From Escherichia coli (GTDB taxonomy: Bacteria; Pseudomonadota; Gammaproteobacteria; Enterobacterales; Enterobacteriaceae), in assembly GCF_003790525.1 (NCBI RefSeq), contig NZ_CP033636.1: a stretch of 64,000 nucleotides of DNA; one strand, written 5' to 3'. Positions 13,276-43,830 of this stretch are shown here, one piece after another; positions within the stretch are counted from its first letter, which is position 1, and every line of letters begins with the position of its first letter. A program made the translations under genes and the position numbers. Below the pieces are notes generated by a model, which ran no database searches, was not told the DNA's origin, and worked only from the letters and a program-made list of their open reading frames with translations.

Positions 13276-13311
13276 ATATTAACAATCCAGATGCACGAGC
13301 TAATAACCTCC
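13276..13311 (-). promoter_or_regulatory. island promoter module, minus-strand copy
   Basis: reverse complement reads GGAGGTTATTAGC-N19-TAATAT, positioned upstream of the 13248 start. Confidence 0.45.
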
Positions 13312-13808
13312 AGACAACTTTTTCAAAAATTATATACTTAAAGCAGGGGCTAATATGCGCAAGAAATGAATTTAGGAAGGATGGCTTCAAATTTAACTTT
13401 TTGGTTTTTTATTTTAGACGGACTTTAAAATAGCATCGCTGGTAAAATAATAAACATGGTTTATTTTTTGTTTGTATTGACAATCAAATGGGTAAAAATT
13501 AATTTACTTACATGGCGTATATTTAATGCCACCGTCCCGGCGGCACCGGGCATAAAAGGAAAACCATCTTGAAACCAATGCTCAAAAAAGATTTTTTTTC
13601 AGCTATTGAAAACCTTCTCAAAGCTGGCTTTCAACCTCGCTTTTACACTGTTAACAGTGGACGAATCGGTCTCATTACATTCACTGATAAAAATGGAACA
13701 AAACAGGTCCCGCCGGGCAGAAAAGAAAAACATTAAAATTAGCTATTTTCCCGAAAAGATCTCGAACACTGAAAAAGTATCATGGGGAACCTGATCAGGA
13801 GACAACCC

Positions 13809-16199
13809 ATGAAAATCAAACTAGCCCTGCTTATTGCATTTGCAGGTTTCAGCGCAGGAGCTTCCGCTGAAATCGCAGAATTCAGCTTTAAAGATACCCT
13901 GAACGTTAAAAAGACCGTATCGCCTGCATCCGTATGGATTAATCCGGTAACGAGCTTTGACGTTGCCGTTATTTCCGGTCTGGACCGTTATATTACGCTC
14001 AGTCTGCTGAAAAGTGACGGGAGCCTCATCTGGAGCACGAAAAGCAGCCTGGTTACCGTAGATGACCGTACCACATCTTCGACAGGCTTTGATTATTACG
14101 GCAAGACTCTGACCGTACCAGCGATGGGAGAAGATAGCTTCACCCTCAGAGAGGTGATTACCGACTTGCAAGGGAAGGAGGTCTCCCGGCAGGATTACCC
14201 GCTTGCAATTGACCGAACGCCTCCGGCAACGGGTACCATAAGTTATACGAGAAACGGGTGGAACTTTGGCAGCGAAGCGATCTTCACTTCAGTACCAGCC
14301 GGTATGCAGTACGCCAGCGTCCAGGCACTGGTCTTTAATGGACTGAGTGATAAAGGTTCCGGGCTTGCTAATGCTGAATATTTCATAACCGATGCCGCTG
14401 GAGTGGAGCGTAAAAAGCCAGCGGAAATTAATACAGTGGAAGGTAGCGTAACCGTTCAAGTCGCCGACGCAAGCAGCAATGCCCTGGCACCGGAAAACCG
14501 CTCTGAATATAAAGTGGGGATCTACCTTTATGACAAAGCGGGAAACAGGATCGAACTAAGCCGCCGAAGCGTAATTGATCGGGTTAAGCCTGACGATATC
14601 ATCCAGGTGCAGGACGCCACTACCGGATCATGGGTCACTTATCAGTCTGGCATGACCGTCTTCCAGAACCCTATTTCCGTACGGGTATTAAGGAAAAAAA
14701 GTGACTTTACTGCTGTTAACGGTTCCAAATATGGCTGGGCGGACTCGAATTTCCAGACGTCCGATAGCACTTATAATATTTATACTTTCAAATACATATA
14801 TCCCAATGTGGGGGATACTTATCATGAATTCCAGACTCTGGCAGGAGGAGTAAGACGAATTCATCATAACTCCCTCAACTTCACTCCAGCCCCGGCGATG
14901 GAAATAGCCCCGAAGATAGTGGCTAAAGAGATGTACCGGAGTGATACCAGTGAGTGGTTAACTCAGGCCTCAATCAGCGTTAAAACCGCCACCATTAGCC
15001 GCATAAAGGTAACCGCTGAACCCCGACCATACGTGCAAAAGTTCAGAACGGTAAAAAATGCAGCCTGGTTCTGCACTATACCTATCGGACAAAGTTCATG
15101 CGAGATGACGGTTAACTTCAACTACACCAGTGACAAAGGATTTGAGTATCTGCACCTTTACTCGGGAAAAGATGGTGACAGCATATTCGATGCGCTTGCT
15201 GGTAATTTTACGGTTATCTGGGATAACAACCCACCGGTGGTTAATGTCGCTCAGGTAAACAAGGCCTCCAAGACAATCACTATGACGGCCACCGATAATG
15301 ATCGCGTCAACGCCTGGAACATCAGCTACTGGGATACCAAAGTTTTCGAAGCCACCCTTAAAAATGCCCGGGGGGAACCTTTCACGCTGAAGCCTGTGAC
15401 CGTCAGTGAAAGCGATTATAAAACCAAAAACGCCACCTTCTCATACGCTGGTCTACCGGACGGGGATTATACGGTGGTTAGCGTCTCTGCCACGGATCTT
15501 GTTGGAAACACCGGAACCAAAACGCTTAATGCACCGCTGAAAATTGACTCAACGCTTCCGGTTATCGCGTTCAGTTTTAATGGCGCAGACGCAGAAGGAA
15601 AACTGGTTAAAGGGCTTGAGAACCTTCGCATAAGCGTTACTGATGCCTCTGGGGATGCTTCCCTGACATCGCTTCAGCTCGCTGGTGGACCTAACTCTGA
15701 AAAGGTCACCCTGGCATTCACGCCGTTATCCAAGGATGTCTTTATTCCGGAATACCCCAGAATCTTCCCCAACACTGACGAATCGGGACAGATGTATCAT
15801 CTGGAGGCACTGGCTATTGACGAATCAGGTAACCGGACCACTAAAACGCTTAATTTTACCTACCAGCCTGCGAATCTGATTATGCTGGATAATCTCAAGA
15901 CGCTGGCCACAGCCGTAGCACTGAAAGCAACGGACAACACGCCGCTGGCCATCATCCGAACCAGTGTGTTGCGGCGTCAGGACGGTTCTATCATTACCGG
16001 ACAGTTAAACGGAACCCTGACTGTTCAGAAAAATGCCCAGTTCGGCGTTACGGTTGCCGGAGTTACGGTCCAGCCTGGTGAAACTAAATCGCTGTCACTG
16101 GATCTTGGTAATGGTGAAGAGCGCACGTATCCCGTTACTCCCGCTGTAAGTGGTCAATCTGGCACGGCCACATTTGCTATAGAATTCCCTCAAACATAA
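13809..16199 (+). CDS. secreted large Ig-like-domain protein, paralog C
   Basis: ORF 13782..16199; likely start at MKIKLALLIAFAGFSAGASA (13809); motifs IDRTPP and IDSTLPVIA; C-terminal block FTYQPANLIMLDNLKTL...TVQKNAQFG shared with paralogs. Confidence 0.6.
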   Translation: MKIKLALLIAFAGFSAGASAEIAEFSFKDTLNVKKTVSPASVWINPVTSFDVAVISGLDRYITLSLLKSDGSLIWSTKSSLVTVDDRTTSSTGFDYYGKTLTVPAMGEDSFTLREVITDLQGKEVSRQDYPLAIDRTPPATGTISYTRNGWNFGSEAIFTSVPAGMQYASVQALVFNGLSDKGSGLANAEYFITDAAGVERKKPAEINTVEGSVTVQVADASSNALAPENRSEYKVGIYLYDKAGNRIELSRRSVIDRVKPDDIIQVQDATTGSWVTYQSGMTVFQNPISVRVLRKKSDFTAVNGSKYGWADSNFQTSDSTYNIYTFKYIYPNVGDTYHEFQTLAGGVRRIHHNSLNFTPAPAMEIAPKIVAKEMYRSDTSEWLTQASISVKTATISRIKVTAEPRPYVQKFRTVKNAAWFCTIPIGQSSCEMTVNFNYTSDKGFEYLHLYSGKDGDSIFDALAGNFTVIWDNNPPVVNVAQVNKASKTITMTATDNDRVNAWNISYWDTKVFEATLKNARGEPFTLKPVTVSESDYKTKNATFSYAGLPDGDYTVVSVSATDLVGNTGTKTLNAPLKIDSTLPVIAFSFNGADAEGKLVKGLENLRISVTDASGDASLTSLQLAGGPNSEKVTLAFTPLSKDVFIPEYPRIFPNTDESGQMYHLEALAIDESGNRTTKTLNFTYQPANLIMLDNLKTLATAVALKATDNTPLAIIRTSVLRRQDGSIITGQLNGTLTVQKNAQFGVTVAGVTVQPGETKSLSLDLGNGEERTYPVTPAVSGQSGTATFAIEFPQT

Positions 16200-16567
16200 G
16201 CTCTTCAGAAGGGTGCGGTAGTATGCCGTACCCTGTTACGCCATCCTCAATGTAATATGTAGAGTTGAGCATGACTTAATTATTACTTTCTCATTAAGTG
16301 GCTCTTAAATTGCAAACGGGAAAGTAATATTCCCGAGACGGGAAGGACGCCTTCCTTTTGGTTTTAATCTATGATGCTAAACCGTTTAATCACTCCGGAA
16401 CAATGCCCGCGTTTAAATGGCTGGCACCAGTACATGATTTATCCATGAATGCTTTTTGATGCACTTTTACTTCAGAATGCTCTTAATTTTTTAAACAAAA
16501 TTATATTTGAATCCTTCGTGTATAAATTTGCAGACCCTCTCTCAATGTTTTTTTAAAATATTTACTC

Positions 16568-16603
16568 TCAGGTTATTAGCCAGTAGATTCATTCTGTCAT
16601 GAT
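16568..16603 (+). promoter_or_regulatory. island promoter module copy
   Basis: tcaggttattagcc then 19 bp then catgat, about 30 bp upstream of the 16634 start. Confidence 0.45.
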
Positions 16604-16633
16604 TACTCCAGAACTAACCGGAGGAATCACATT

Positions 16634-17104
16634 ATGACCAAATATTATGATCGCAGTGGAATTGAAATCTCCAGCGCAAAAATCCGCTGTGTTGATTCTG
16701 TAAAAGGTACTGCGGAATATACTTTTCGTATTCTTTGCGATAAATGCAATGGTCGGGGAGAGCGTAAGCATTTTTATAGAAGTCGCTGTATGGCTTGTAA
16801 AGCCACGGGTTACAGCCTCGAAACGACCCGCACTGCTTACACGCTGAATGCGCTGTACCGCATTAATGCTCAAGCTGCCCGCAAAGTGTCAGCATCCTTG
16901 CAAAACGAGCGTTTGAGGACTGAAAACGCCCACAACTCTGCGTTCAATGCATGGTGCAGATCTCATCAAAAAATGGTTGATGCAATCACCCAGCAATCCA
17001 GCAGTAATAATTTTCTGGAAAGCCTTAAGTCTTCTTTAACCCACCAGCGTCAGTTAAGTGATAAGCAGCTGGCAGTCGCCGCCCGCATTTTAGGGATTCA
17101 TTAA
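16634..17104 (+). CDS. hypothetical protein with CxxC...CxxC zinc-ribbon-like motif
   Basis: 156-aa ORF with RBS ggagg; CDKCNGRG...CMACKATG cysteine pairs; immediately upstream of the HigB-like gene. Confidence 0.5.
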   Translation: MTKYYDRSGIEISSAKIRCVDSVKGTAEYTFRILCDKCNGRGERKHFYRSRCMACKATGYSLETTRTAYTLNALYRINAQAARKVSASLQNERLRTENAHNSAFNAWCRSHQKMVDAITQQSSSNNFLESLKSSLTHQRQLSDKQLAVAARILGIH

Positions 17105-17153
17105 TTCAAAGCCCTTTTAATTTAATTTTAAGGTCAATTATTACGGAGGAACT

Positions 17154-17450
17154 ATGATCCATTCATTTAAAGACAGACGGCTTGAAAAGTTCTTCCGTAA
17201 TGGAAAAACAACGGCAGGTATTCCTTCTGAAATTATTAACGCGATTCTGTGTCGACTCGAAACGCTGGATAATGTCCAGAGTGAGCGGGAGTTATTATCC
17301 AACAGCTTGCGTTATGAACGCTTAAGAATGACGTCAAACCGTTATTCCTCCATTCGAGTAAACTCTAAGTATCGATTATTCTTTGAATGGAATGATGGCG
17401 CACATAATGTCCATTTGTCAGCACATGACTATAAATCGCTCATCCATTAA
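17154..17450 (+). CDS. higB: HigB-like toxin (RelE/ParE superfamily, killer-protein family)
   Basis: 98-aa ORF; MIHSFKDRRLEKFF...SIRVNSKYRLFFEWNDG...HDYKSLIH matches the HigB pattern MIxSFK...L..F...R...RL.F...D.....DYH. Confidence 0.55.
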   Translation: MIHSFKDRRLEKFFRNGKTTAGIPSEIINAILCRLETLDNVQSERELLSNSLRYERLRMTSNRYSSIRVNSKYRLFFEWNDGAHNVHLSAHDYKSLIH

Positions 17451-17692
17451 GGTTAAAAATGAAGCTATTTTCAATTTCATCCCGGGATACAAGCATGGAC
17501 GCGATGTTTTATATCCAGGCCAGTACTAAACAATAGGCAAGTTACATATTTAGTACCCTTTCCCCGAAGCCTACTGCGAACTGCCAGCTTACAGATTTGC
17601 AGAATGAGACGGTCGTCCCTTCCATAAGCCCTATTTCGCTTTCACTTAACCCCTGGTCGATCAATTCCCAGTCCCGAACCCGGGAATTGAGT

Positions 17693-18640
17693 ATGGCCAC
17701 GCATGGTCTTAACCTGATCTGTGCAGTCACGGATGAGCATACCCGTCAGATAGTAGACTTTTGCGATAACCTTGGACAGCAGCTTAAGGATCCGGACGAC
17801 AAAAGCGCCTGGGTTAAGCTCATTAATTCTGAATGCGCATTGCTTAATTCTCCGCGTTTATATCCCGTTCTGCTGGAGCCGGAGACACCGGCACAATTTG
17901 AAATCTTTGTGCCAGCTCCGGAAGATGGCGATCACGACACGGTTATAGCCAGCGTTGTTGAAGAATGTTTCGGAGATGAATGCCGGTACAGAGCAACGGA
18001 CAAAGCTTTTGCAATGTCGGAAAAGCCAATCATCAGGCTGGAAGCACATTTCAATGACAAACGGGAAAAGGTTTTAGAACTGACCTTTTCCAGTTTCAAC
18101 CTTTCACTTTCTGCGTCCGTGTATGAACACCAGCTACGTCAGATTTTATTACTTTGCGAAGATTTTGGCGTAAGGCTTCAGGGTAGAGCCGGGGCATCCT
18201 GCCACATCAATATGCGCAGCGCTTACCGTCGTCTTGCACATGTCGGCACCGGCTCTCGCCCAGGTGATGGGAGTGATGTGCGGGGCTATACCTCATCTAA
18301 AGAGCAAAAAGATGTTAAGGGGCTGCTCGATAAGTCAACCAGGGGAAGTGAGCTTGTACCGGCGAGGCACGGGCAGCAGTTTAACGGTGTCTTAGTGAAT
18401 GCCACACCCGCACCGGCCACGACGGGTTTTATATACCTGTCGCATGATTTTCCGGAAGGCCAGTTTATGATGACAGCCGAGGTGTTGCATGTTGGAATAA
18501 CACCGGGCGGGATCTACTACATTGAAACACTGGACGGATACCGGTTTATCGTTACAGCGTTTGAAAAGGGATTAATGAACGGTTTAAGGGAGTTTTTGGC
18601 TGTAAATGAGGACTACTTTAAGTATTACCGCTGGTCTTAG
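17693..18640 (+). CDS. hypothetical protein downstream of HigB-like gene
   Basis: ORF 17597..18640; an internal Met at 17693 is a plausible start; no HTH antitoxin signature seen. Confidence 0.4.
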   Translation: MATHGLNLICAVTDEHTRQIVDFCDNLGQQLKDPDDKSAWVKLINSECALLNSPRLYPVLLEPETPAQFEIFVPAPEDGDHDTVIASVVEECFGDECRYRATDKAFAMSEKPIIRLEAHFNDKREKVLELTFSSFNLSLSASVYEHQLRQILLLCEDFGVRLQGRAGASCHINMRSAYRRLAHVGTGSRPGDGSDVRGYTSSKEQKDVKGLLDKSTRGSELVPARHGQQFNGVLVNATPAPATTGFIYLSHDFPEGQFMMTAEVLHVGITPGGIYYIETLDGYRFIVTAFEKGLMNGLREFLAVNEDYFKYYRWS

Positions 18641-18866
18641 CGTCTGACCTGAAACCGGTAGGCCAGGGAAGGCAACCGGGAAAATGCAATTTAACCTGAT
18701 CCTCTCCCTACCACTACCTTTACCCACGTATAATAGCCCGACCAAATTATAATGCCCGATCACCGCATTGGCTGAAACCACACATATTCTTCTTAGGCCT
18801 CGCCTGATGAACTTCGACCACAAGACAAAGGAACGTAACTAATAAATAAAATTTATGAGCTGCACA

Positions 18867-18877
18867 AAAGTTACTTT
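18867..18877. repeat. AAAGTWACTTT palindrome copy
   Basis: exact aaagttacttt, 120 bp upstream of a promoter module. Confidence 0.6.
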
Positions 18878-18986
18878 TCCATAATGGCGCTTCACTTACA
18901 TTGTGGTTTCATAATCATTGTTGGTATTTAAAAAGGATGTGTTCAATCTTAAATAAAAGGCGGTGTTTTTTTTCTGAAAATTTGCT

Positions 18987-19023
18987 GGGAGGTTATTAGC
19001 TGGGGGTTGGGTAACAGTATAAT
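18987..19023 (+). promoter_or_regulatory. island promoter module copy
   Basis: gggaggttattagc then 19 bp then tataat, upstream of the 19048 start. Confidence 0.5.
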
Positions 19024-19047
19024 AAGTACAGATGAAAAGGAGGTTTT

Positions 19048-19425
19048 ATGAAAACGTTAGACGTGATTTCAACTCAACTCAACTTTAATAATCTGCTGAA
19101 TCAGGCAGGATATAATCTTTCAGAAATTGTTGTTAAACGCTACAGCGCTGCACCCGCCTTTAACGAAGGGCACTGGTTGTTCATTGCAGAGCAGGATAAT
19201 CGCTACATTGAAGTGGTCAGTCTTCTTTCAAAGGCATCAGAAAGCGGAGAGCAGCATGTCGATATCTTTATCAATATGTTCGAAGATCCGATTGATGACA
19301 TTATCTCACGAAACATTGAACCCAAAACATTTGCGACACTTTATAAATACATTGAACGTATACCTTTTACACCGGACGTAAAAAAAGAATTCTTGAGCAG
19401 TATTGAGACTATTAATTTTAGTTAA
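19048..19425 (+). CDS. hypothetical protein
   Basis: 125-aa ORF with RBS aaaaggagg. Confidence 0.5.
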   Translation: MKTLDVISTQLNFNNLLNQAGYNLSEIVVKRYSAAPAFNEGHWLFIAEQDNRYIEVVSLLSKASESGEQHVDIFINMFEDPIDDIISRNIEPKTFATLYKYIERIPFTPDVKKEFLSSIETINFS

Positions 19426-19451
19426 CTAAAAATTACAGATTTTCTTTCACC

Positions 19452-19489
19452 AAGTTATTAGGTAATGATATCGACCTGGTATCATTACC
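19452..19489 (+). promoter_or_regulatory. island promoter module variant with embedded inverted repeat
   Basis: caagttattagg then 19 bp then tatcat; the spacer contains a perfect 10-bp inverted repeat ggtaatgata / tatcattacc. Confidence 0.45.
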
Positions 19490-19519
19490 GTATCATGAAT
19501 ATGGACGGGGACGGGTAAA

Positions 19520-19948
19520 ATGCCTAATAATACTGAAGTCATTAGCTGCGACTTATTTTCAATTCTTTCCTCACTTAATTTTAGTGTTGAGGATATTACA
19601 GGGCTAACTCCGGCCAAATTCAGAAAGGGGGCTTTCTTGCATGCAAAAATATCTGCAAGCCAGGCCACGCGAGCAGCTGATATTTCCCTTCAATTACTCA
19701 CGGATCGTGTTTCAGGTGAAATGAACTACGTAATAGTAATTGGCAGGCACGAAGGGCTCCTGCAAAGCGAAGCAATTGACCCAAACGCTGATAAGCAGTA
19801 CCGGGAAAACCGTCATTCTCGCCATTTTATCCCAGTAACCGATGCCAATACCAAAGCCCTGAAAAAAACCTGCAAGGTAATGAAAACATATATCAAAGAG
19901 CAGGCATTTAAGCCTAACACCTGGGGGCACAATTTCATTAAGGGTTGA
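19520..19948 (+). CDS. hypothetical protein
   Basis: 142-aa ORF; a GC hairpin (ttgccccgg tgaa ccggggcaa) follows at about 19953-19974. Confidence 0.45.
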   Translation: MPNNTEVISCDLFSILSSLNFSVEDITGLTPAKFRKGAFLHAKISASQATRAADISLQLLTDRVSGEMNYVIVIGRHEGLLQSEAIDPNADKQYRENRHSRHFIPVTDANTKALKKTCKVMKTYIKEQAFKPNTWGHNFIKG

Positions 19949-20012
19949 TTTATTCTTGCCCCGGTGAACCGGGGCAACGCTAAATTAACCTCAACCTGAG
20001 CTGGAGGCACAA

Positions 20013-20270
20013 ATGTCTGAAAAACACTTTATCGTAAAGATCCAGAACCGTAACGGCGACCATGAGAAAAGCTATGTTCGTATACTCGTCAGCGATTGTG
20101 AGAAAAATGCTTGCCAGACGGCACTGATTTCCGAGTGTGCTGGCGAGGTTGAACAGCTGAGTTTTGAAGACGGTGGGGTTTATGACTACAACGGCGAAAA
20201 TCACTACAGTGTCAGGAGCTGCGTGGAGGTTGCCCCTGAAGATGTTGCAACTTTGCAACGCTACCTTTAA
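20013..20270 (+). CDS. hypothetical small protein
   Basis: 85-aa ORF with RBS ctggagg. Confidence 0.45.
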   Translation: MSEKHFIVKIQNRNGDHEKSYVRILVSDCEKNACQTALISECAGEVEQLSFEDGGVYDYNGENHYSVRSCVEVAPEDVATLQRYL

Positions 20271-20413
20271 CACCTGCGGCATTAAAAAAAATATCGGGTG
20301 TCTGTTACAGGATGCCGCTGTTTTAAACGATGCCTCAAAGATCGCTATCGCTCCTGATGCCTTCATTAAGAGCGGGTTTGTGGTAGGTTCAGCGTAACAA
20401 AACTACTGGAATT

Positions 20414-21034
20414 TTGGTTGCCTCGATGAAGAGCTGCTTTTCTGATTTACCCGTTAAAGACGGCAAGTCCGGAACTTGGAAACTGGACACTTTCGAAATT
20501 ACCACAGATAAGGCGCTGACCCTCGCCCTTCGTGCCGAGTGTACTGGTAATACAGATGAGTTTATCCCGCCCGGTAGATATCGCCGCTTGTCCAACGGCT
20601 GGGATGTGGTGATGTCCAATACCCCGATGGAGATCCGAACCTGCCAGGATTTTATAGAGCGAGCCACCGGGCGGGTGCTCATTAATGGTCTTGGTCTTGG
20701 TATGGTGCTCCACGCCATTCTTCAGAAAGACGATGTAACCCATGTCACGGTAATCGAAAAAGAACAGGATGTTATTAACCTCGTTGCAGCCTCGTTTGCA
20801 ACCGATCTTCGCGTTGAAATTATTAATGCTGATGCAATGGAGTATTGTCCACCAGCTGGCGTTACGTACAACGCTTGCTGGCATGACATATGGACAGACT
20901 TCGCAACAGCTAATCTCGCACAGATGGATAAGCTGGAAAGTAAGTACCGGGACATCTGTGACTGGCAGGGATCGTGGGGCAGGGAGGAGTGTGAGCAAAA
21001 GCTCATTGAGTTCCAGAATCTTGAGGCTGATTAA
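20414..21034 (+). CDS. possible small SAM-dependent methyltransferase-fold protein
   Basis: 206-aa ORF; glycine-rich VLINGLGLGM followed by an acidic strand (VTVIEKE), resembling methyltransferase motif I; weak. Confidence 0.3.
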   Translation: MVASMKSCFSDLPVKDGKSGTWKLDTFEITTDKALTLALRAECTGNTDEFIPPGRYRRLSNGWDVVMSNTPMEIRTCQDFIERATGRVLINGLGLGMVLHAILQKDDVTHVTVIEKEQDVINLVAASFATDLRVEIINADAMEYCPPAGVTYNACWHDIWTDFATANLAQMDKLESKYRDICDWQGSWGREECEQKLIEFQNLEAD

Positions 21035-21202
21035 TCCAACTTGCGAAGGTGTCTCCGCTAAAGGAGCCCGGCTCGCTCTGTGCAAGCCCAGCTGTGCTGC
21101 ATGATTTGGCAAAGTCTTCAACAAACCAGATCGGTCTGATTTAGTAATCTCACTTCCAACCATCAGGCCGATATAATAACTGTATCCCCATTAGGATGGC
21201 TG

Positions 21203-32743: not shown

Positions 32744-33037
32744 ATGTCAGGTTTAAGCAGTTCCGCCCAGAAGCTTACAATGGCACAGATTTACGTGTTA
32801 CGACGGATGGCATCCGGCACGGTCTATGATATCTCTGGCAATTTCAGACGGGCCAGAGAACGGCGTACGTTTATGGGGAATCCTGATGATGTGACGTGCA
32901 GGAGCTCTCCGGTCCTGTTCCGGCTCGGCCTCGTGGAGTTATGCCAGCCAGCAAGCCATCTGGAGCCAGGTTTATACTATCGGCTCAAGTTGAGCTCCTC
33001 AGGGCATGAGGCTCTCAAGGCGAACGCACACCTCTAA
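32744..33037 (+). CDS. hypothetical protein
   Basis: 97-aa ORF with RBS aggagggg. Confidence 0.45.
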   Translation: MSGLSSSAQKLTMAQIYVLRRMASGTVYDISGNFRRARERRTFMGNPDDVTCRSSPVLFRLGLVELCQPASHLEPGLYYRLKLSSSGHEALKANAHL

Positions 33038-33065
33038 CATTTGAGATAGTTCGTTCGCAGCCAGG

Positions 33066-33076
33066 AAAGTAACTTT
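33066..33076. repeat. AAAGTWACTTT palindrome copy
   Basis: exact aaagtaacttt, about 30 bp after the stop of 32744..33037. Confidence 0.6.
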
Positions 33077-33216
33077 CACCTCAAGTGTGACCCTTACTAC
33101 CTCATTTATGAGTAAACCCCCCCTCTGATATGTCGAAAATGCTCATTTATACGAAAATAGTTTCTCTTCAGGTGTGATGTAATTACTGAGAATTCTCCCT
33201 GAATGGAAGGCAACCG

Positions 33217-33420
33217 ATGAAAATGTTTTTTACCCCTTATGTTCGTATCGTTTTCTATTTTTGCGCATTGATTTTTATTGTTTACAGTTTCAGTGATTTT
33301 TTCCAGGGCGTCCCTGACAGCACCTTCTTCAGTGCGGTCATCATGCTACTTGTTATCGGAACCATTGTTGCCCGGCATCTGGATCGCAAAAAATCTCTCA
33401 AAAATACTTCACAGATTTAA
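33217..33420 (+). CDS. hypothetical small membrane protein
   Basis: 67-aa ORF with two hydrophobic segments. Confidence 0.35.
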   Translation: MKMFFTPYVRIVFYFCALIFIVYSFSDFFQGVPDSTFFSAVIMLLVIGTIVARHLDRKKSLKNTSQI

Positions 33421-33474
33421 GTTTCAACTCAGGCCACTCTCGGGTGGCTTTTATAATTTAATAAGGACCGGTTC

Positions 33475-33699
33475 ATGCATAACCACGAAATTCAGACCAT
33501 TGCTATATTTAGTGCCCAGTATAAAAACATCGAAGATGCTGAAAATGCAGGTGCTTTATATTCTGTAGATATTGAATATCCGATGACACTAAATGATTTA
33601 TCGCGGCTTTGCGACTCTATTGCCGAAGCAGTAGGTGTGCCTGGCGGCGTCAAATACCAGTTCGTGTCCCAGCCGGAAGCGCATGAAACCAGCTTCTGA
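33475..33699 (+). CDS. small protein, paralog of the 28271 product
   Basis: 74-aa ORF; block DIEYPMTLNDLSRLCDSIAEAVGVPGGVKY. Confidence 0.5.
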   Translation: MHNHEIQTIAIFSAQYKNIEDAENAGALYSVDIEYPMTLNDLSRLCDSIAEAVGVPGGVKYQFVSQPEAHETSF

Positions 33700-33738
33700 T
33701 AACCAGTAACCAAACTGCCTAAAAGCAGGTGCAAAGCC

Positions 33739-33939
33739 ATGAAACAAACAAAGTCTTCTATGTCACGTATTGTGCAGCTGTACGACGGGAGCCGATACGG
33801 AAACTGCGAGCAGGCTGATAACGAAGGAGAGCTTTTTACGGTGGTGTTGAATAAGCCTTCGCAGATCGATGACATCCGTAAAATCGTAGACACAACCGCC
33901 GAAGTACTTGGCAAAGCTTTGCCAGTACTCCTCTTATAA
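33739..33939 (+). CDS. hypothetical small protein
   Basis: 66-aa ORF; loose resemblance to the 28271/33475 pair. Confidence 0.35.
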   Translation: MKQTKSSMSRIVQLYDGSRYGNCEQADNEGELFTVVLNKPSQIDDIRKIVDTTAEVLGKALPVLLL

Positions 33940-34098
33940 AGCTTACATCCGTGAAGGATAATTACGGTCTTACTACTTTCAGTTTTTCATTCCAGTGCCG
34001 TCCATTTTAATTTATCGATTTTAAGCGGTCGGCGCTATTTCATCGTTTCTTTTCCGACTGTAATTCCTTATATATAGGAATATTTCAAAGAATTTTTC

Positions 34099-34135
34099 TC
34101 AGGTTATTTGTGGCGGGATGCCAGTTGTTATAATG
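34099..34135 (+). promoter_or_regulatory. island promoter module, variant
   Basis: tcaggttatttg then 19 bp then tataat, upstream of the 34162 start. Confidence 0.45.
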
Positions 34136-34161
34136 ATTCCACATAATCTGGAGAGTTAATC

Positions 34162-34473
34162 ATGATCACATCTCTAATGAATTTCCGCGATTTAACCGGA
34201 GAGGCAGTCATCCAGGCGCGGCAATGCGTTATTAATGCGGAGATCGAAGCGGCCCGGGAAAAGGTAATTCATGCTCGTTCGTTATTCGAAGCGGGTATAC
34301 ATAATGTTGTAAACGGTAGTTCTGGCATTAAGGCTGCGGCAGCACATTTTCTGGTGATAAAACGTTTACAGACTGACACTCGGTATCTGGATGCGGTTAT
34401 CACTGATAACCTTTGCATGTTTTCTCCTGAGGGTTATCTGTATCTGTTTATGCAACAGCGTTATATGCGATAA
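34162..34473 (+). CDS. hypothetical protein
   Basis: 103-aa ORF with RBS ggagag. Confidence 0.45.
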   Translation: MITSLMNFRDLTGEAVIQARQCVINAEIEAAREKVIHARSLFEAGIHNVVNGSSGIKAAAAHFLVIKRLQTDTRYLDAVITDNLCMFSPEGYLYLFMQQRYMR

Positions 34474-34847
34474 AACAATGTGTTAGGGAAGTATCTTGCC
34501 ATTAAAAATATTAAAAAGGTGACTTGATGAAACCATTTGGACTTGCCGGAAAACCCCGGCCCGAACCTTGCGGCTGCTGCTGGTATACCCGTGAGGACTG
34601 CCCTTACGTCAGCGCAAAATAGATCTATCGCCGCAGGCAGCGCAAGGCAGAACGCCAGCGTCAGCGCAGCACCATTGTGATGGCCGTTTCTGAATTTCGC
34701 TGACTTCTTCTGGAAATATCATTTTTTCTCCAGAAGAATTTTAAAATAAAGGGAAATCTCTTCACGGGTATCTGATGTTTATTGTTTATGGTAAATTGCG
34801 CCACATTAATTTTTGTGGCGCAGTTCGTGTTGGCTTAAGGATATAAT

Positions 34848-35129
34848 ATGAAAATCAGCCAGCTGGAATCCGGGATGCAGGTTTGGTCTGTAACCCGTAC
34901 CAAAATGGGAAATACCACCATTACAACGGTCATTGTCCACCCCGTTGTCATTATAGAAATTCATGATAATCATGTGATTGCTCGCTGGAACGGCAATGCA
35001 CCACGTCGTTTTGGAGAAACGGCTATCAGGGGCTGGAAGAAGGAGAAGCCCCTGCTTGTCCGTGAACCTTTCGGAAATGCTCGCCTGGCCACCCGGGCTG
35101 AAAAAGCCGCTATGCAGGAAAAAGAGTAA
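34848..35129 (+). CDS. hypothetical protein
   Basis: 93-aa ORF; preceded by inverted repeat gcgccaca / tgtggcgc and a tataat. Confidence 0.4.
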   Translation: MKISQLESGMQVWSVTRTKMGNTTITTVIVHPVVIIEIHDNHVIARWNGNAPRRFGETAIRGWKKEKPLLVREPFGNARLATRAEKAAMQEKE

Positions 35130-35344
35130 TACCCCTTTTAGCATCCACAATTTCAACGTCCATCTGCCTTTAACCTTGCCTGTTAATAACGGAATCCTTT
35201 CTGACTGGCCGGATCCCACGCATAACCTGAACTGTTGGCTAACCGTCTTACAGCCAAATTCCCTCCTTTATCTGGCAGGAGTGCGTCCGTGAGCTCTGTA
35301 TGATCTACGTGTTTGTTCAGTAGAGCACATAACAGGAGTGGGGT

Positions 35345-35950
35345 ATGACTGAATTAAATAAAAGCCCGTCCGGTTTTTCCGGAGCTGATGTCAGTAAAGA
35401 ACAGGCTGCCATAAGGGCACTTGTAGAAAGAGTAGTGACCAACTATCGCAGCCGGACAGCACCTGATCGGGTTCAAAAGGCTTCGGTAGCGTTTAATGGG
35501 GGATTAATCCTGACCCTGATGCTGGCCTTGTCGCTATTGGGCTACCTTGTGGCGGAATTGTTCAGGGGGTATGTTGCGGATAGTTCACCCTATGTGCCTG
35601 GTCTAAGTTATTCGCAATTTTCGATGCTGATGATCGTTGAGCTGTGTCTATGCTTTCTCGCATGGTTTTTGGTTGTCACAGGGGACTATCCCCGGCCGTG
35701 GATATTTCAGGTAGTCCCGATGGAGCAGTACTGGTTCTTTGACGAAGTGGATGACGACGATCTTGCCCGGCTTTCCTGTAACCCTTACATCAAGCGCTGG
35801 CTACTTGATGAAATGTCCGGTATTCATCGACTGACCTACACGAGGCTGCATGATCGACTGGAGCGCATCTGTAATATTCCATCCCATCTCGAATACAGCC
35901 GTATTCAGGCACATAAGCTTTCCCTAATCAACGGAACCAGTGCCTCCTGA
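35345..35950 (+). CDS. hypothetical membrane protein
   Basis: 201-aa ORF with RBS aacaggag and two or more hydrophobic helices. Confidence 0.45.
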   Translation: MTELNKSPSGFSGADVSKEQAAIRALVERVVTNYRSRTAPDRVQKASVAFNGGLILTLMLALSLLGYLVAELFRGYVADSSPYVPGLSYSQFSMLMIVELCLCFLAWFLVVTGDYPRPWIFQVVPMEQYWFFDEVDDDDLARLSCNPYIKRWLLDEMSGIHRLTYTRLHDRLERICNIPSHLEYSRIQAHKLSLINGTSAS

Positions 35951-36282
35951 TCCTACCATTGCATCCGGAAATTAAACGGGCAGGAACTGCACTGTATGTT
36001 CCGACCAAGCAGCTGCCCGTTACCCTTTTCTTTAGTGTAAAAAGACTGTCTCCGACAACCGGAAGTGACTCATGTCAAATAAATTATAAATCAATGATTT
36101 ATGCAGGCAGGGTGTTTGGCTGATCAGGGCAGAGTGATATAATGACGCTGGTGCTGGAGGCTTTTGCCCCAGCCAGCGGTAACACTGTTTGACTGTGGTA
36201 AAAGCAGAAAGCCCCGAGTAATTTTTCAATTAACCTGTACTGCACCCATTTTGTTGGACGATGAAATGGAATAGCCCCTGAT

Positions 36283-38327: not shown

Positions 38328-38546
38328 TCATACCTTCTGCTTCTCAAGGACACGGCGGAGTTTTTTTACCTGGGACGCAGTGGAAAGTGTGCCGGTTCTG
38401 GGATGGCATGCGCTTGCCTTTTCATCAGGTTTAAGCTCATAGGCTAATGCCAGATCGTTCAGAGCCGCCTCAGCTTTCAGCAGGGCCTCAATGGCCGTGT
38501 TCAGGTATACAGTTCGGCTCTCATGGTTCATCAGTATTGTCCTCAC
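38328..38546 (-). CDS. hypothetical small protein
   Basis: 72-aa ORF. Confidence 0.3.
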   Translation of the reverse strand: MRTILMNHESRTVYLNTAIEALLKAEAALNDLALAYELKPDEKASACHPRTGTLSTASQVKKLRRVLEKQKV

Positions 38547-38576
38547 AAGGGTAAAATGACAGGCGATACCTGCCGT

Positions 38577-38933
38577 TTACCCTTTGTCTCCGTTAAGAAT
38601 GGCATTACGGCAGGCTTCCCAGATAACCTGGGCATTAGCATCACACTCCACGAACCCGCCGCACTGATCGTATATCACCTGGTATACCTCTGGGGGAATC
38701 TTCCCAGGCGCAACCGGAGTTGAGCGTTTGCCTTTATGAATCTCATCTGCGGTATCACAGACAGCGTCGAGATGCCGCGACATCCACTCAGATAATTTCA
38801 GACCCTCTCGATTTGCCTGTTTTACATAGCGAACCTTTCTGGAAACCGTAGATCGCATCTGAATCTGTGTCACAGCTGGCACATCTTCTTTCATGGCATT
38901 CTGTAATGCAGCTTTGGGCTTTTTCATGTTCAT
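38577..38933 (-). CDS. hypothetical protein
   Basis: 118-aa ORF. Confidence 0.4.
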   Translation of the reverse strand: MNMKKPKAALQNAMKEDVPAVTQIQMRSTVSRKVRYVKQANREGLKLSEWMSRHLDAVCDTADEIHKGKRSTPVAPGKIPPEVYQVIYDQCGGFVECDANAQVIWEACRNAILNGDKG

Positions 38934-38986
38934 GGTTGCTTTAAATTATTCTGGAGTTCGTCTGTTATAAATGCTGCCGTGATCTG

Positions 38987-39589
38987 TCAGCGTCGCTTAA
39001 ATAGTTTATCGCCTTCCGCCAGTTCGCCGTTGAGCTGTTCAATCACACTCCAGATGAGCCGATCATCCGGCGTTGAGCCTGCACACTCTTTCACGACCGC
39101 CACGGGTCTAAATTCTTCAGGGTCTGCCTGCCCGGAGGTGAAGAGCCTGCTCTCAACCCAGTGGGCCCCCTCTGTGCAGCAGTGGCAACTGGTTTCAGGT
39201 GGTTCATCCAGACCGTCCACTCCACAGGCTGAGCAGGTGAACAGTTTGCGAGACCCACCAGCCAGTGGCGTATCGCAAGCTGCTGGAAGTGCGCCAGCAT
39301 TGCGCCAGTAAAGCACATGATTTGAATCGTAGCAGTGTCCATGAAGCAGAAGCGAAACGCCGCAACTGCGAGTTTCAATGGCTTTGCCTGTGCCAAGGTA
39401 TTGCCCGATTTCGTCCCATACGTCCACTAAGGTGTCAGGCAGCGGACGCGTAACAGGGAACTTAGCGCAGTCGTCCGGGGTGCCTTTAATGCAGCAGAGG
39501 GCCGAATACGCAAGCTCCTGCATTTCGTAGGAGTACTGACCACATACCACGCGTTCCAGTTTGTCGATTAGTTGTTCTTTATTCATCAT
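38987..39589 (-). CDS. hypothetical Cys/His-rich protein
   Basis: 200-aa ORF with many Cys and His (CSACGVD, CHCCTEGAH), suggesting metal binding. Confidence 0.4.
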   Translation of the reverse strand: MMNKEQLIDKLERVVCGQYSYEMQELAYSALCCIKGTPDDCAKFPVTRPLPDTLVDVWDEIGQYLGTGKAIETRSCGVSLLLHGHCYDSNHVLYWRNAGALPAACDTPLAGGSRKLFTCSACGVDGLDEPPETSCHCCTEGAHWVESRLFTSGQADPEEFRPVAVVKECAGSTPDDRLIWSVIEQLNGELAEGDKLFKRR

Positions 39590-39685
39590 ACTTAGCCTTA
39601 TTAAACAAATTCATTACACCACTGGCACCATCTGGGCAGGAGCAGACTGCGGCCCGGTAGTAGAGCCGCAGGGGGTGTCGCTGGA

Positions 39686-40630
39686 CTAACAGGCGCTCAG
39701 TGAGTCCCGCACTTCCTCATGACTGGTCATATTCAGAAGAAGCTTTCCAGGGCAGCGTGGTTCCGCCTGTGAACGGGTGACGTCTTCATTGAGTGCCTGG
39801 ATATGAGCAGATTCAACGGTCCTACGCTGTACGACATGGTTGCTAAGGTTGAATTCGCACTGGAGCCTTCTGGCATCAGAATCCGCGTTCATTGCAATGC
39901 GTTCATCAAAGCGGCGGTTCATTCGCAGAGCCTCTTCGTGAGCTGCATCAACAAGGGTGCGTCTGGTGACATAGTCGTTACCAGCAAAAAACGATAGCTG
40001 AGCGTGTTCCGAAGAGTAGTCGGAGCTTCCCTTACAACGGGCAATCGCGGCTTCAGAGTGCAGGATTAATGAACTCAACCGTGAACAGACGTCATTGATG
40101 GTGCCTGTTTTCAGACAGTCGTGGATAAGTGTCCAGGCGGAAATGCTCAGCGGGCGGCTGGTGGTCACATAGGGATTGTAATGATCAACCGTTACGATTG
40201 TACGCAGTGAATGAAGCGATTCGGACTGCGTACGTAAGTCACGGCGAACAGTAGATGCCACCGAGGCAACATCTTTACATTCTTTGTCGGACATCGAGTC
40301 CAGTACGCGGATCTCCACCTCTGCCGCCTTTGAGGCGATATGCGCACTAATCTCCCCCTTAAGACGTTTGTAGTCAGCCTTGAAGCTTCCCACGCTGTCA
40401 ATATCGATCCAGTAACCACAGCTGTAACCAGCATTACCAAACTCGTCATCTTTCTCATAGTTCGGACAGCCGTCATTGCTCCAGCCAGCTTTTTCCAGCA
40501 GCTCGTCAATAGCGACCAGCTCAGCCATTGGTGCATGTTCGATAATGAAATAATGGACACGGCCCCAGGCATATGCGCGTGAACGGCCATCAACAGAAGT
40601 ATCAGAAGTCGTCTGACGGGAAAGTTTCAT
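39686..40630 (-). CDS. hypothetical protein
   Basis: 314-aa ORF. Confidence 0.45.
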   Translation of the reverse strand: MKLSRQTTSDTSVDGRSRAYAWGRVHYFIIEHAPMAELVAIDELLEKAGWSNDGCPNYEKDDEFGNAGYSCGYWIDIDSVGSFKADYKRLKGEISAHIASKAAEVEIRVLDSMSDKECKDVASVASTVRRDLRTQSESLHSLRTIVTVDHYNPYVTTSRPLSISAWTLIHDCLKTGTINDVCSRLSSLILHSEAAIARCKGSSDYSSEHAQLSFFAGNDYVTRRTLVDAAHEEALRMNRRFDERIAMNADSDARRLQCEFNLSNHVVQRRTVESAHIQALNEDVTRSQAEPRCPGKLLLNMTSHEEVRDSLSAC

Positions 40631-41630: not shown

Positions 41631-41641
41631 AAAGTTACTTT
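41631..41641. repeat. AAAGTWACTTT palindrome copy
   Basis: exact aaagttacttt, abutting a promoter-module variant. Confidence 0.6.
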
Positions 41642-41651
41642 TTCTTCTCCG

Positions 41652-41690
41652 CAACCTATTAGGAAAAATGTCGAACCTGGTATTGTTGTG
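41652..41690 (+). promoter_or_regulatory. island promoter module, variant
   Basis: caacctattagg then 17 bp then tattgt, upstream of the 41732 start. Confidence 0.35.
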
Positions 41691-41731: not shown

Positions 41732-42916
41732 ATGTCCGCAATCGAAACTGAAGTAAAAAACAACAGCAACGAAATCAGCCTTCGTGGTTACCTGGAACGC
41801 ACTGGTAACGGTGCCCGTAAAGGCAACGGCCTTATCATTGACCCTTCGGTTGTTGTAGAGCAGGAAGGCTTTAACACCCGCACGGCCGGTATGGGCGAGC
41901 TCTACTATTCAATGCCTCACGTTGTGGAACACCTGAACAGCCTGGCCGATGCCTACATGGAAGACCCGTTCAGCGTGACGCCTATCGTTGTTCAGATGGT
42001 TAATGGCGTACCTGTACTGCGTCAGGGGGCTTGCCGTATCCGTTCCATCGCTATTGCAAACCGCCAGCTGGAAGCAGAAGGGCGTGAACGCATTACTCGT
42101 ATTCGCTGCGAAGAGTTTCGCGGTAGCGCTTCAAAAGCAGAACTCTTCACCCTGACCGGCAACTCCAACCTGGCGCTGTCTGTCGTAGCTGAAGCGCTTT
42201 CAATTAAGCGTCTGGTTGAAGATAAAGAAGAGCCTAAGACCTTTGCGGAACTGGCAAAAAAACGTGGTAAATCAGAGCAGCATCTTCGCCAGATGGTTCG
42301 CGTACTGGACCTGCCTTCTGAACTACAGACCATGCTTGTGAGCGATCAGGTGAGCATGTACGTTGCACTGGACGAGTATATGTACAGCGGTGAGGATGCG
42401 GTAGATAACATCAACAAAGCGATCTCCATCTATGGCAAGGCGACGAAAAACACGCTGAAATTCGTCAAAGCTGCCAAGGTAGAAGAGCGCATGGCAGATC
42501 CGCAGACTCCGGAAAACATCGGTGCTGAGCAACCGGCAGATGATACTACCGATAACACCCCGGTACCGGATCAACTGAACGATGAAAGCAATACGGAGAC
42601 GCTGGATACGCCACCGGTACAGGAACCGGCTCCAGCTCCAAAGGACAGCGCTCCTAAACAGAACCCGGCAGGTAAAGCACCTTCCATGTCCAGCGTTCTG
42701 AACAAAAAGACTGTGACCGTCATTGCAGACACCGCGATCCCGATTTTTGAACGTATTGCTGAAGAAGCCAAGCTTAAAGAAGGTGAATCTGTCAGTACTG
42801 ATACTTACACGCTTGTTCTGACCAATGATGAAATGAACGATATCATCAACGCTCATGCTGACCTGAAAGAGTACCTGCGTAAGCATGCTGATAAGATGAA
42901 CAAGGGACAGTCATGA
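41732..42916 (+). CDS. ParB-like protein (ParB N-terminal domain plus HTH), no adjacent ParA
   Basis: 394-aa ORF; LIIDPS...FNTR...PIVVQMVNG...RQGACRIRS resembles the ParB/Srx fold; HTH-like TFAELAKKRGKSEQHLRQMVRVLDLPSELQ; acidic proline-rich linker. Confidence 0.5.
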   Translation: MSAIETEVKNNSNEISLRGYLERTGNGARKGNGLIIDPSVVVEQEGFNTRTAGMGELYYSMPHVVEHLNSLADAYMEDPFSVTPIVVQMVNGVPVLRQGACRIRSIAIANRQLEAEGRERITRIRCEEFRGSASKAELFTLTGNSNLALSVVAEALSIKRLVEDKEEPKTFAELAKKRGKSEQHLRQMVRVLDLPSELQTMLVSDQVSMYVALDEYMYSGEDAVDNINKAISIYGKATKNTLKFVKAAKVEERMADPQTPENIGAEQPADDTTDNTPVPDQLNDESNTETLDTPPVQEPAPAPKDSAPKQNPAGKAPSMSSVLNKKTVTVIADTAIPIFERIAEEAKLKEGESVSTDTYTLVLTNDEMNDIINAHADLKEYLRKHADKMNKGQS

Positions 42917-42960: not shown

Positions 42961-42981
42961 AGGACAAGGGGAAACAGGGCA

Positions 42982-43263
42982 ATGAAGAAGGCTGTTATCA
43001 ACGTAGACAAAACTAACCCACTGCCAGTCCTGACGGATTCGGTGACCCGGGTAAGTATTCAGTGCACGGCAAAAGATGAAAACGGGGCAGGGATCGAAGT
43101 GAATATACTCGACCTGATTCAGGATCATGATACGGCTGAAGTGAAAGTGCAGTTTGGGAGCTCGCCTGTTCAGGCTCTGGCGATGCTCCGCCGGGTTATG
43201 ACAGCACTGGAAAAGCAGGCAAACGCAGAACTGAATACAAACCACTATTCGCGTATGCAGTGA
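42982..43263 (+). CDS. hypothetical protein
   Basis: 93-aa ORF. Confidence 0.4.
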   Translation: MKKAVINVDKTNPLPVLTDSVTRVSIQCTAKDENGAGIEVNILDLIQDHDTAEVKVQFGSSPVQALAMLRRVMTALEKQANAELNTNHYSRMQ

Positions 43264-43447
43264 TCTACTCTGGCAATTTCATCCATGCTGCCTCTGATCT
43301 GTCAATCGCGGGCGAAACCTCAGGATGAATAACGCTGATGTTAGCAGCTGGTGGAACAAACAGACTTAAATGGAAAATTGCAGTGAGTAAAACAATGCGT
43401 AACGTTGTTGCGGGTTACATTCAGCCGCTAAGCGGTTCCCGGACACT

Positions 43448-43726
43448 ATGCTAAGCGTGGTCAGACGAAAGCTCAGCAGTATCGTCGACATGCAGGAGAC
43501 CGTCAGACAGTCCTCACAAATGCTTGAGTCTGATGCAGCCATATTCCTGAAACGCGCCATAGTTGCGAGGATGCTTCAAAAAATAAAATATCAGGATAGT
43601 GAAGTTTTAAAAGACTGCCTTGGCGATTTTTTTATTTATGAACAACGTGAAAAATTGCGCCGACTTGGCGTGATTACTAACTGGGGGATTAATAAAACAG
43701 CAGACGGGAAGAATAATAAGTTGTGA
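43448..43726 (+). CDS. hypothetical protein
   Basis: 92-aa ORF. Confidence 0.3.
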   Translation: MLSVVRRKLSSIVDMQETVRQSSQMLESDAAIFLKRAIVARMLQKIKYQDSEVLKDCLGDFFIYEQREKLRRLGVITNWGINKTADGKNNKL

Positions 43727-43792
43727 TAACTCAGTAAATATTAATTTAAAAAGCGTCTTCAGAAATAGAAAAAATGCAAATTATATTGCTAC

Positions 43793-43830
43793 GGGTTATT
43801 AGCCGCTGAGGCTGTTTACATATAATACTT
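43793..43830 (+). promoter_or_regulatory. island promoter module copy
   Basis: cgggttattagcc then 19 bp then tataat, upstream of the 43847 start. Confidence 0.5.

Follow-up and report, generated by a model that had tools for sequence, protein, structure and literature searches.

We analysed a 64,000-nucleotide (nt) stretch of DNA from Escherichia coli (NCBI RefSeq assembly GCF_003790525.1, contig NZ_CP033636.1; hereafter the window), in which many genes of a single region are preceded by a short sequence box at a constant distance from a TATAAT-like hexamer. The window belongs to an IncHI2 (R478-like) resistance plasmid, and its positions 16000-36000 are 100% identical to many IncHI2 plasmids from E. 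coli, Salmonella and Enterobacter. We used pHS13-1-IncHI2 as the annotated copy and R478 (NC_005211.1) as the reference plasmid. The left end of the window carries RepHI2 and large Ig-like genes, followed by the 13-47 kb block that holds the box promoters. The products of this block include orphan methyltransferases, toxin-antitoxin parts, an HNH nuclease, DUF957, DUF3085 and DUF6012 proteins, a ParB-like protein and hok. It is followed by Tra1 on the minus strand, with a nuclease-related gene, an S49 peptidase gene, DUF4400, traD, the MobH relaxase gene and mobI, and by the oriT intergenic region at about 58.8-59.5 kb. Since nearly all genes of the block lie on the plus strand and Tra1 and oriT lie to its right, the block genes are oriented toward Tra1 and oriT.

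The initial annotation, made from the window alone, had described this region as accessory. Comparison with other plasmids showed instead that the block is a conserved, syntenic part of the IncHI backbone between RepHI2 with the Ig-like genes and Tra1. It has largely syntenic counterparts in the IncHI1 plasmid pHCM1 and in pKPC_CAV1374 of Klebsiella oxytoca, with proteins 45-80% identical to those of the window. A phage origin of the region was rejected, as no similarity to it was found in the phage collection.

Geometry of the promoter module

Eleven copies of the module had been listed in the initial annotation. All eleven lie where it had placed them. They are intergenic and share the strand of the gene that follows, and about 24-60 nt separate the end of the -10 hexamer from the start codon (Table 1). 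The exact core GGTTATTAG occurs in 7 copies, compared to 0.27 expected from shuffles, and the composite GTTATTAG-N18/19-TANNNT in 6 copies, compared to 0.03 expected. A repeat finder run without prior information returned the module as the top and largest direct-repeat family, and the reverse complement of TCAGGTTATT ranks among the most frequent 10-mers of the window.

The distance between box and hexamer had been given as 19 ± 1 nt and regarded as unusual. Measured from the end of the 13-mer CAGGTTATTAGCC, it is 16 nt in 10 of the 11 sites and 17 nt in the site at 24094, which is an ordinary spacing. With the hexamer at -12 to -7, the 16-nt gap places the 13-mer at -41 to -29, so that the box itself occupies the -35 position. 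Its consensus, (C)AGGTTATTAG(C/G)(C/T), is asymmetric. Of 31 sites from three lineages (the window, pHCM1 and pKPC_CAV1374), 28 have a 16-nt and 3 a 17-nt gap, and all share one orientation. Positions T5, T7, T8 and G10 of the 13-mer are invariant in these 31 sites, TTATTAG is nearly so, and the best-conserved bases form the core GGTTATTAG at -39 to -31. The box shows partial dyad symmetry (GGnTAnTAnCC, 4 of 5 pairs) in addition to its fixed orientation.

The remainder of the module is typical of extended -10 promoters. TG stands at -15/-14 in seven of the eleven sites in the window and, over the three lineages, in 24 of 31 (77%), and the hexamers are TATAAT-like, with TATAAT in nine sites and TATATT, TATTAT, TATCAT and similar sequences in others. 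Upstream of the box, at a distance of 10-27 nt, there is an A/T-rich tract with the consensus AATTTTnAAAATATTT. Terminator-like hairpins upstream of several modules (Table 1; a further one at 31607) fit separate transcription units. A scan of 13000-32900 for the canonical sigma-70 consensus listed none of the box promoters in that range, which indicates that a canonical -35 element is absent. The best -35-like hexamers within the box (TTAGCC and TTATTA) match TTGACA at 3 of 6 positions, where at least 4 of 6, at 16-18 nt from the -10, would count as a -35 hexamer. The box thus has the properties of a -35 surrogate, namely an asymmetric site, a fixed distance and orientation relative to the -10, and no -35 hexamer.

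An exact GGTTATTAG core is also present at 25317-25325, inside the coding region 25015-25464. This copy has no -10 at the right distance and is probably non-functional; it is kept in R478.

Two modules carry additional symmetries. A hairpin with a 12-bp stem had been described at 31749-31799. The hairpin exists, and its extent is larger: it spans 31746-31802 with perfect 15-nt arms (31746-31760/31788-31802), such that the 5' half of the box pairs with an inverted copy 27 nt upstream. A 10-bp inverted repeat mentioned in the same annotation was found at 19461-19470/19480-19489, in module 19424-19485. Neither structure is kept at the orthologous promoters of the other IncHI lineages, and we therefore regard both as local features.

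Table 1. Coordinates of the box modules and associated features. Positions refer to the window unless another sequence is named. L013 and L016, first and second locus of pHCM1; L014, pKPC_CAV1374; L015, NZ_CP034040.1 (Klebsiella pNDM-MAR-like).
Feature	Position	Strand	Box	-10 hexamer	Genes headed or content	Orthologous boxes	Other features
IncHI backbone block with box promoters	13276-47500	+			about 45 mostly small genes annotated without function (hypothetical)		syntenic
Module	13276-13337	-	13298-13310 (GAGGTTATTAGCT)	TAATAT, 13276-13281	254-amino-acid (aa) gene 12484-13248 and genes after it	L013 8089(-), L014 589(-)	16-nt spacer with TGT; A/T element upstream
Module	16542-16603	+	16569-16581 (CAGGTTATTAGCC)	CATGAT, 16598-16603	156-aa zinc-finger protein, RelE/ParE toxin gene, 315-aa gene		TGT; terminator-like hairpin upstream at 16340
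Module	18962-19023	+	18989-19001	TATAAT, 19018-19023	125-aa gene 19048-19425	L014 4614	
Module	19424-19485	+	19451-19463 (CAAGTTATTAGGT)	TATCAT, 19480-19485	19520-22453, including DNA methyltransferase	L014 5106	TGG
Module	23196-23257	+	23223-23235 (variant, TGACCTATTAGCC)	TATCAT, 23252-23257	23296-23945	L013 12256, L014 10611	
Module	24067-24129	+	24094-24106	TATGAT, 24124-24129	24172-28021, including 794-aa PAPS-reductase-family protein		17-nt spacer; TGT; terminator-like hairpin 23984
Module	30492-30553	+	30519-30531 (variant, CAGCTTGTTAGCT)	TATAAT, 30548-30553	30614-30841 and following genes		terminator-like hairpin 30446
Module	31746-31830	+	31796-31808 (CAGGTTATTAGCC)	TATATT, 31825-31830	DUF957 and DUF3085 genes		TGT
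Module	34073-34134	+	34100-34112 (CAGGTTATTTGTG)	TATAAT, 34129-34134	34162-34473	L014 22323	TGT
Module of orphan ParB-like gene	41631-41686	+	41652-41664 (variant, CAACCTATTAGGA)	TATTGT, 41681-41686	ParB-like gene	L014 37113, L016 15539 (both with the full CAGGTTATTAGGA box)	TGG; palindrome AAAGTTACTTT at 41631-41641
Module	43765-43826	+	43792-43804 (CGGGTTATTAGCC)	TATAAT, 43821-43826	first gene from 43847 on, out of register relative to the reference plasmid		
Orphan ParB-like helix-turn-helix protein	41732-42916	+			394 aa		sits behind a box
AAAGTWACTTT sites	886, 951, 7654, 9878, 18867, 23079, 28128, 30859, 33066, 41505, 41631, 47457, 52359, 54089, 58950, 59435, 62495						
Modules of the Klebsiella lineage (L015)	6824, 9007, 12435, 13387, 17445, 18808 of NZ_CP034040.1				six genes		

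Conservation and distribution of the box

To obtain a phylogenetic footprint, we aligned orthologous promoters on the box without gaps and compared IncHI2 with the other two lineages, pHCM1 and pKPC_CAV1374. Identity was 28% at 31-60 nt upstream of the box and 44% in the 30 nt directly upstream, 92% in the GGTTATTAG core, 35% in the first 11 nt of the spacer, 76% in its last 5 nt (the TGn region), 86% in the -10 hexamer and 55% downstream. Purifying selection has thus kept the box core and the extended -10, while spacer and flanks have been randomised. This textbook footprint is the main evidence that both elements are functional, and it gives strong comparative support to the initial reading of the modules as promoters of a regulon; the unusual spacing and the accessory nature that had been attached to that reading did not hold. 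Orthologous genes in these plasmids are headed by the same box. The filter for box promoters was passed by 7 sites in the first locus of pHCM1 and by 13 in pKPC_CAV1374, and the second locus of pHCM1 holds 3 more box promoters. The box has been conserved since before the split of IncHI1 and IncHI2.

IncHI1 lacks the stretch corresponding to window positions 18989 to about 22900, which starts at one box-headed unit and stops just before another, and the DNA similarity of IncHI1 and IncHI2 at the DUF957 unit starts at the box.

A more distant relative, the pNDM-MAR-like MOBH plasmid of Klebsiella, has no box, but it encodes homologues of the ParB-like protein (35% identity), DUF957 and DUF6012. 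Its block genes are headed by another stereotyped module, consisting of GGGG(T/C)TTGnnn, 16 nt and TATCCTGG(T/G). The cis element is therefore lineage-specific, with the architecture and the 16-nt spacing common to both lineages. A different cis element in each lineage is what would be expected from a co-evolving plasmid factor. In the Klebsiella modules a Dcm-type CCWGG site overlaps the -10, and an AAAGTWACTTT palindrome often lies about 20 nt upstream.

The distribution of the box was assessed in R478 by scanning 1-100 kb and 150-200 kb with a position weight matrix and the remainder by pattern search. As the initial annotation had proposed, the module is confined to one region: it was found in the equivalent block of R478 (201-253 kb), save for three weak extra candidates at 36448(-), 166727(-) and 176554(+). 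These have 16-17 nt to a -10-like hexamer and precede hypothetical genes, with one of them placed between trhN and trhI in Tra2, and might belong to the regulon as outliers. Lowering the score threshold revealed no box at the oriT or Tra1 promoters of the window or upstream of the Tra2 operons of R478 (the candidate at 36448(-) precedes a non-tra gene). The box therefore does not head tra operons, as the boxes of AcaCD/SetCD-type systems do.

A wider distribution, such as a regulon of the host, was rejected. An exact scan for the composite module in 100,044 species-representative genomes, a set with one genome per species and without the IncHI plasmids themselves, gave 70 single scattered matches and no locus with a second copy. 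This absence of clustering corresponds to chance level and argues against a host regulon or another family of elements.

We also rejected several other readings of the repeated module. The copies are neither edges of a mobile repeated sequence nor long repeats of the CUP type, as the module, with 4 copies of 33 nt at 67-76% identity, forms the largest direct-repeat family and no longer repeats were found in 13000-47500. Words such as GACAACGGTAGTGA recur up to 10 times in the window; they presumably stem from repeats in the coding sequence of the large Ig-like genes (1-16200) and bear no relation to the promoter box. A single-strand promoter of the Frpo/ssi type was rejected because, when folded as single-stranded DNA, 10 of the 11 regions were no better than shuffles (z +2.2 to -1.3). 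Only the region at 31796 folds well (z -4.05), and its stem joins the 5' half of the box with the upstream copy rather than the -35 with the -10. Like the Frpo/ssi promoters of F-like leading regions (PMC11541004), the modules head co-oriented, establishment-type genes that point to oriT; unlike them, they have no conserved hairpin and are ordinary duplex promoters. An alternative sigma promoter was rejected, as the annotation of R478, which was the source used here, lists no sigma-family product, and the -10 and TGn are typical of sigma-70.

Candidate factors and the AAAGTWACTTT palindrome

Searches of Pfam, PHROGs, NCBIfam and PDB sequences yielded no candidate for a cognate activator. Nor did scans with PHROGs and NCBIfam reveal a regulator among the first genes that follow each box; the sole signal, weak and of the Q-like or DnaJ zinc-finger kind, came from the 156-aa protein. 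We considered three proteins of the block individually.

The orphan ParB-like protein matches Pfam HTH_ParB (1.5e-5) and a ParB-like PHROG (1.6e-21), and its helix-turn-helix aligns to solved ParB structures. We rejected it as the reader of the box, since it is also encoded in the box-less Klebsiella lineage and tracks clusters of a palindrome instead. This palindrome, AAAGTWACTTT, often present as AAAAGTWACTTTT, is the most over-represented word of the window, with 17 exact copies (Table 1) and 21 copies when one mismatch is allowed, compared to 1.8 expected. R478 contains 47 copies, of which few fall within resistance or transposon sequences. The sites are mostly intergenic, two of those in the window lie in the oriT region, and the palindrome is conserved in four IncHI-like lineages, including that of Klebsiella. 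In every lineage a cluster of sites lies directly upstream of the ParB-like gene (two in the window, three in pKPC_CAV1374, two in the second locus of pHCM1 and six in the Klebsiella plasmid). Such a distribution is the pattern expected of a ParB/KorB protein and its sites, and makes the palindrome a candidate KorB- or parS-like site. The ParB-like protein probably binds AAAGTWACTTT rather than the box.

A 116-aa protein (38577-38927), which resembles ribbon-helix-helix (RHH) proteins by sequence pattern only and has no Pfam match, was rejected as the reader because it is absent from IncHI1, which keeps the box. A 67-aa protein (38328-38531, minus strand) has the same phyletic pattern as the box, being present in 1,252 plasmids of the IncHI2, IncHI1 and CAV1374 types and not in the Klebsiella type. 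Its gene probably corresponds to R0104, which is highly expressed in the IncHI1 plasmid R27. In view of its predicted structure, we regard this protein as a weak candidate for the factor.

Both proteins are encoded in the only reverse operon of the block (38328-40630, minus strand), together with DUF5417 and a 200-aa gene. The promoter of this operon, as read by eye, is a canonical TTGACA-N17-CATAGT without a box, and the 67-aa gene is its sole member kept in all three box-bearing lineages.

Control of the block, known systems and minor features

Expression data are available for R27, whose open reading frames (ORFs) between the replicon and Tra1 (R0062-R0075 and R0086-R0114) are covered by published microarrays (PMC7366339). 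We mapped these ORFs by the gene order of pHCM1, which is approximate; R0105 corresponds to the ParB-like gene, and R0108 and R0110 to first genes behind boxes. With this approximate mapping, most block ORFs of wild-type R27 were, at 25 as well as 37 °C, scored "not expressed" or gave signals under about 300 units (PMC7366339, supplement), and two small genes, R0104 and R0113, were high (PMC7366339). Promoters of the block that look strong by sequence are thus almost silent once the plasmid is established.

The conserved motif, with its geometry and its restriction to the block, and the weak steady-state expression of the R27 counterparts call for a functional element at -41 to -29 that is dispensable for the host sigma-70. 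We tentatively favour, at somewhat less than even confidence, the explanation that the box is the recognition site of a dedicated, putative plasmid-encoded trans factor, more likely a repressor, acting on sigma-70 extended -10 promoters. The factor would most likely be encoded by the IncHI plasmid. Under this explanation, each module would be a start of transcription by sigma-70, combining TGn, a near-consensus TATAAT and an A/T-rich upstream tract, in which the box replaces the -35 element, and at least 11 transcription units of the conserved block would be linked by the box in a single regulon. Upon entry into a new cell, the promoters would fire with the host RNA polymerase alone once the DNA has become double-stranded. 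A plasmid repressor bound at the -35 position would then shut them, resulting in a burst of establishment-type genes followed by near-silence.

Repression is favoured for the following reasons. Promoters with TGn, a near-consensus -10 and an A/T tract should fire unaided, as genes needed at once in a new host require, and the low steady-state signal of such strong-looking promoters shows that something holds them down. In other conjugative plasmids (IncP, IncW, IncN, pLS20), establishment genes are under repressor control. Several observations weigh against a repressor. The box is one asymmetric site of strict spacing and orientation, as would be more usual for an activator or a -35 surrogate than for the operator of a dimeric repressor. 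No repressor gene was found in the family searches, the RHH-like 116-aa protein being missing from IncHI1, and the model of the 67-aa protein consists of two helices with a low-confidence linker (mean predicted local distance difference test score 73.5) and no apparent helix-turn-helix or RHH fold. Silencing of A/T-rich DNA by H-NS/Hha could explain the low expression without a specific repressor. Finally, in an htdA mutant of R27, in which TrhR/TrhY is unchecked and transfer is derepressed, many block ORFs were elevated 3-17 fold at 25 °C and not at 37 °C (PMC7366339). The block thus answers the transfer switch, directly or not, and positive control coupled to TrhR/TrhY would account for this induction no less well than repression would.

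Positive control is the main alternative, which we likewise hold at less than even confidence and rate only slightly below repression. Here the box would be a surrogate -35 read by a plasmid activator or a sigma-appropriating factor (class II, in the style of T4 MotA). Without this factor the promoters would be off or silenced by H-NS, and the factor would be made upon derepression of transfer or early after entry. The 9-13 bp asymmetric site with invariant orientation and a spacing of 16 (17) nt in 31 of 31 sites, the lack of a usable -35 hexamer, and the joint induction of block ORFs and tra genes that the htdA mutant shows at 25 and not at 37 °C would all be explained, and MOBH relatives are generally known to have activator boxes that replace the -35 (AcaCD in IncC, SetCD in SXT). 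However, TGn and a near-consensus -10, the former present in 77% of the sites, should give activity unaided. The tra promoters have no box, which makes TrhR/TrhY unlikely as the direct reader, and the R478 annotation contains no sigma-like or known activator gene. The htdA effect, moreover, spans 139 of 181 expressed R27 genes (PMC7366339) and is therefore unspecific.

Without any dedicated factor, the box could be a lineage-specific form of promoter read by the host sigma-70, with TTAGCC as a weak -35 plus flanking contacts, and its uniformity would result from common descent and selection for equal strength, as in the early promoters of T4-type phages. The classic sigma-70 features of the -10 and TGn agree with this, as does the position of TTAGSY, which coincides, with 16-nt spacing in both cases, with that of TTGAYG, TTGACT or TTGCWK in the Klebsiella lineage. 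We find it improbable nonetheless, because GGTTATTAG (-39 to -31) reaches upstream of any -35 hexamer and the 3' CC of that hexamer is least conserved; a 3/6 match to TTGACA needs no 92% conservation across lineages, and the R27 counterparts are nearly silent. A role of the boxes as recombination joints at cassette boundaries, with unit swaps between IncHI plasmids like those of T4-type promoter-stem-loop cassettes and a secondary promoter role, is suggested by the IncHI1 gap that runs from one box-headed unit (18989) to just before another (about 22900) and by the similarity at the DUF957 unit that begins at the box. This appears very improbable, as three lineages show a largely syntenic block whose boxes stand at orthologous positions, the shared identity of 13 + 9 bases is little for homologous recombination, and the strict -10 spacing and TGn would be left unexplained.

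The general kind of arrangement, in which a cis element in many plasmid promoters defines a regulon, is well known, and the IncHI module resembles several such systems in part. Broad-host-range plasmids have global repressor regulons: in IncP-1, KorA and KorB act at the operators OA and OB, and the networks of IncW R388 and IncN produce a transcriptional overshoot on entry. As in the KorA/KorB regulons, one short cis element is present in many backbone promoters; by the approximate mapping, expression of the R27 counterparts is low in the established plasmid. Together with the short palindrome, which is dispersed across R478 in 47 copies, the ParB-family protein resembles KorB with its OB sites. 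Unlike the Kor operators, the IncHI box is asymmetric, with one orientation and one distance to the -10, and it occupies the -35 position, whereas OA overlaps the -10 and OB stands at variable distances; no KorA homologue was recognised. The CUP repeats of the IncN plasmids pKM101/R46 are long, similar repeats that contain promoters and stand before leading-region genes. They share with the IncHI module that a repeated promoter element heads small co-directed operons of establishment or anti-restriction type and that a plasmid repressor has been proposed; here, only about 22 positions are shared, and the longest repeat family has 33 nt at 67-76% identity. Middle promoters of phage T4 combine a MotA box with a sigma-70 -10 and depend on sigma appropriation by AsiA. 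The asymmetric box in place of the -35, at a fixed distance from a good sigma-70 -10 that often has TGn, is a feature of both. The sequences differ, however, the MotA box is centred near -30 and the IncHI box near -34, and no MotA or AsiA homologue was detected. The AcaCD (IncC) and SetCD (SXT/R391) systems, as generally known, belong to elements of the same relaxase family (MOBH) and have a box at the -35 position that defines a plasmid-wide regulon; unlike the IncHI box, which is absent from tra promoters, their regulons centre on tra operons. The sequence of the IncHI box is presumably unrelated to the AcaCD/SetCD motifs.

Plasmids of the IncHI1 and IncHI2 groups carry multidrug resistance of typhoid, mcr-1 and carbapenemase genes, and roughly two thirds of their genes lack a known function. 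The conserved box defines a concrete putative regulon of about 40 uncharacterised genes in this clinically important family, including orphan methyltransferases, toxin-antitoxin parts, a PAPS-reductase-like protein and the ParB-like protein. It offers an experimental handle on the regulator, and on the choice between an entry burst under a repressor and a donor-side programme under an activator. The palindrome beside the orphan ParB-like gene may in turn be the sign of a KorB-like system, of which no example is known from this plasmid family. A combined scheme is conceivable, though we consider it rather unlikely as a whole: IncHI plasmids might have two tiers of control, with the ParB-family protein acting at the approximately 47 AAAGTWACTTT sites as a KorB-like silencer or clamp and a factor at the GGTTATTAG box reprogramming the host RNA polymerase at some 11-16 promoters. 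According to a recent preprint, MOBH plasmids, R27 included, have no recognisable anti-defence leading region (bioRxiv 10.1101/2025.04.03.647016). If the two-tier scheme were true, the 35-kb block, which points to oriT on the relaxase side, would be this missing establishment and anti-defence region. In the searched literature, which did not extend to older R27/R478 papers, neither the box nor the palindrome was found in print in connection with plasmids, and on IncHI regulation only work on TrhR/TrhY-HtdA and H-NS turned up. In that literature the box, its -35 position, its regulon and the associated palindrome are new; an earlier mention in the older papers is possible.

Two further features of the block were observed. 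The frames of the window from 43847 on are out of register relative to pHS13-1-IncHI2, and a sequence resembling InsA of IS1 lies just downstream, which probably reflects an extra IS1 insertion at about 43850-45000. The block also encodes three small paralogous proteins of 66-79 aa (28271-28510, 33475-33699 and 33739-33939) with the common motif (Y/H)PMTLNDLS.LC(D/E)S(I/V)A(E/D)AVG, one of which is 80% identical between IncHI1 and IncHI2 and thus unusually conserved for the block.

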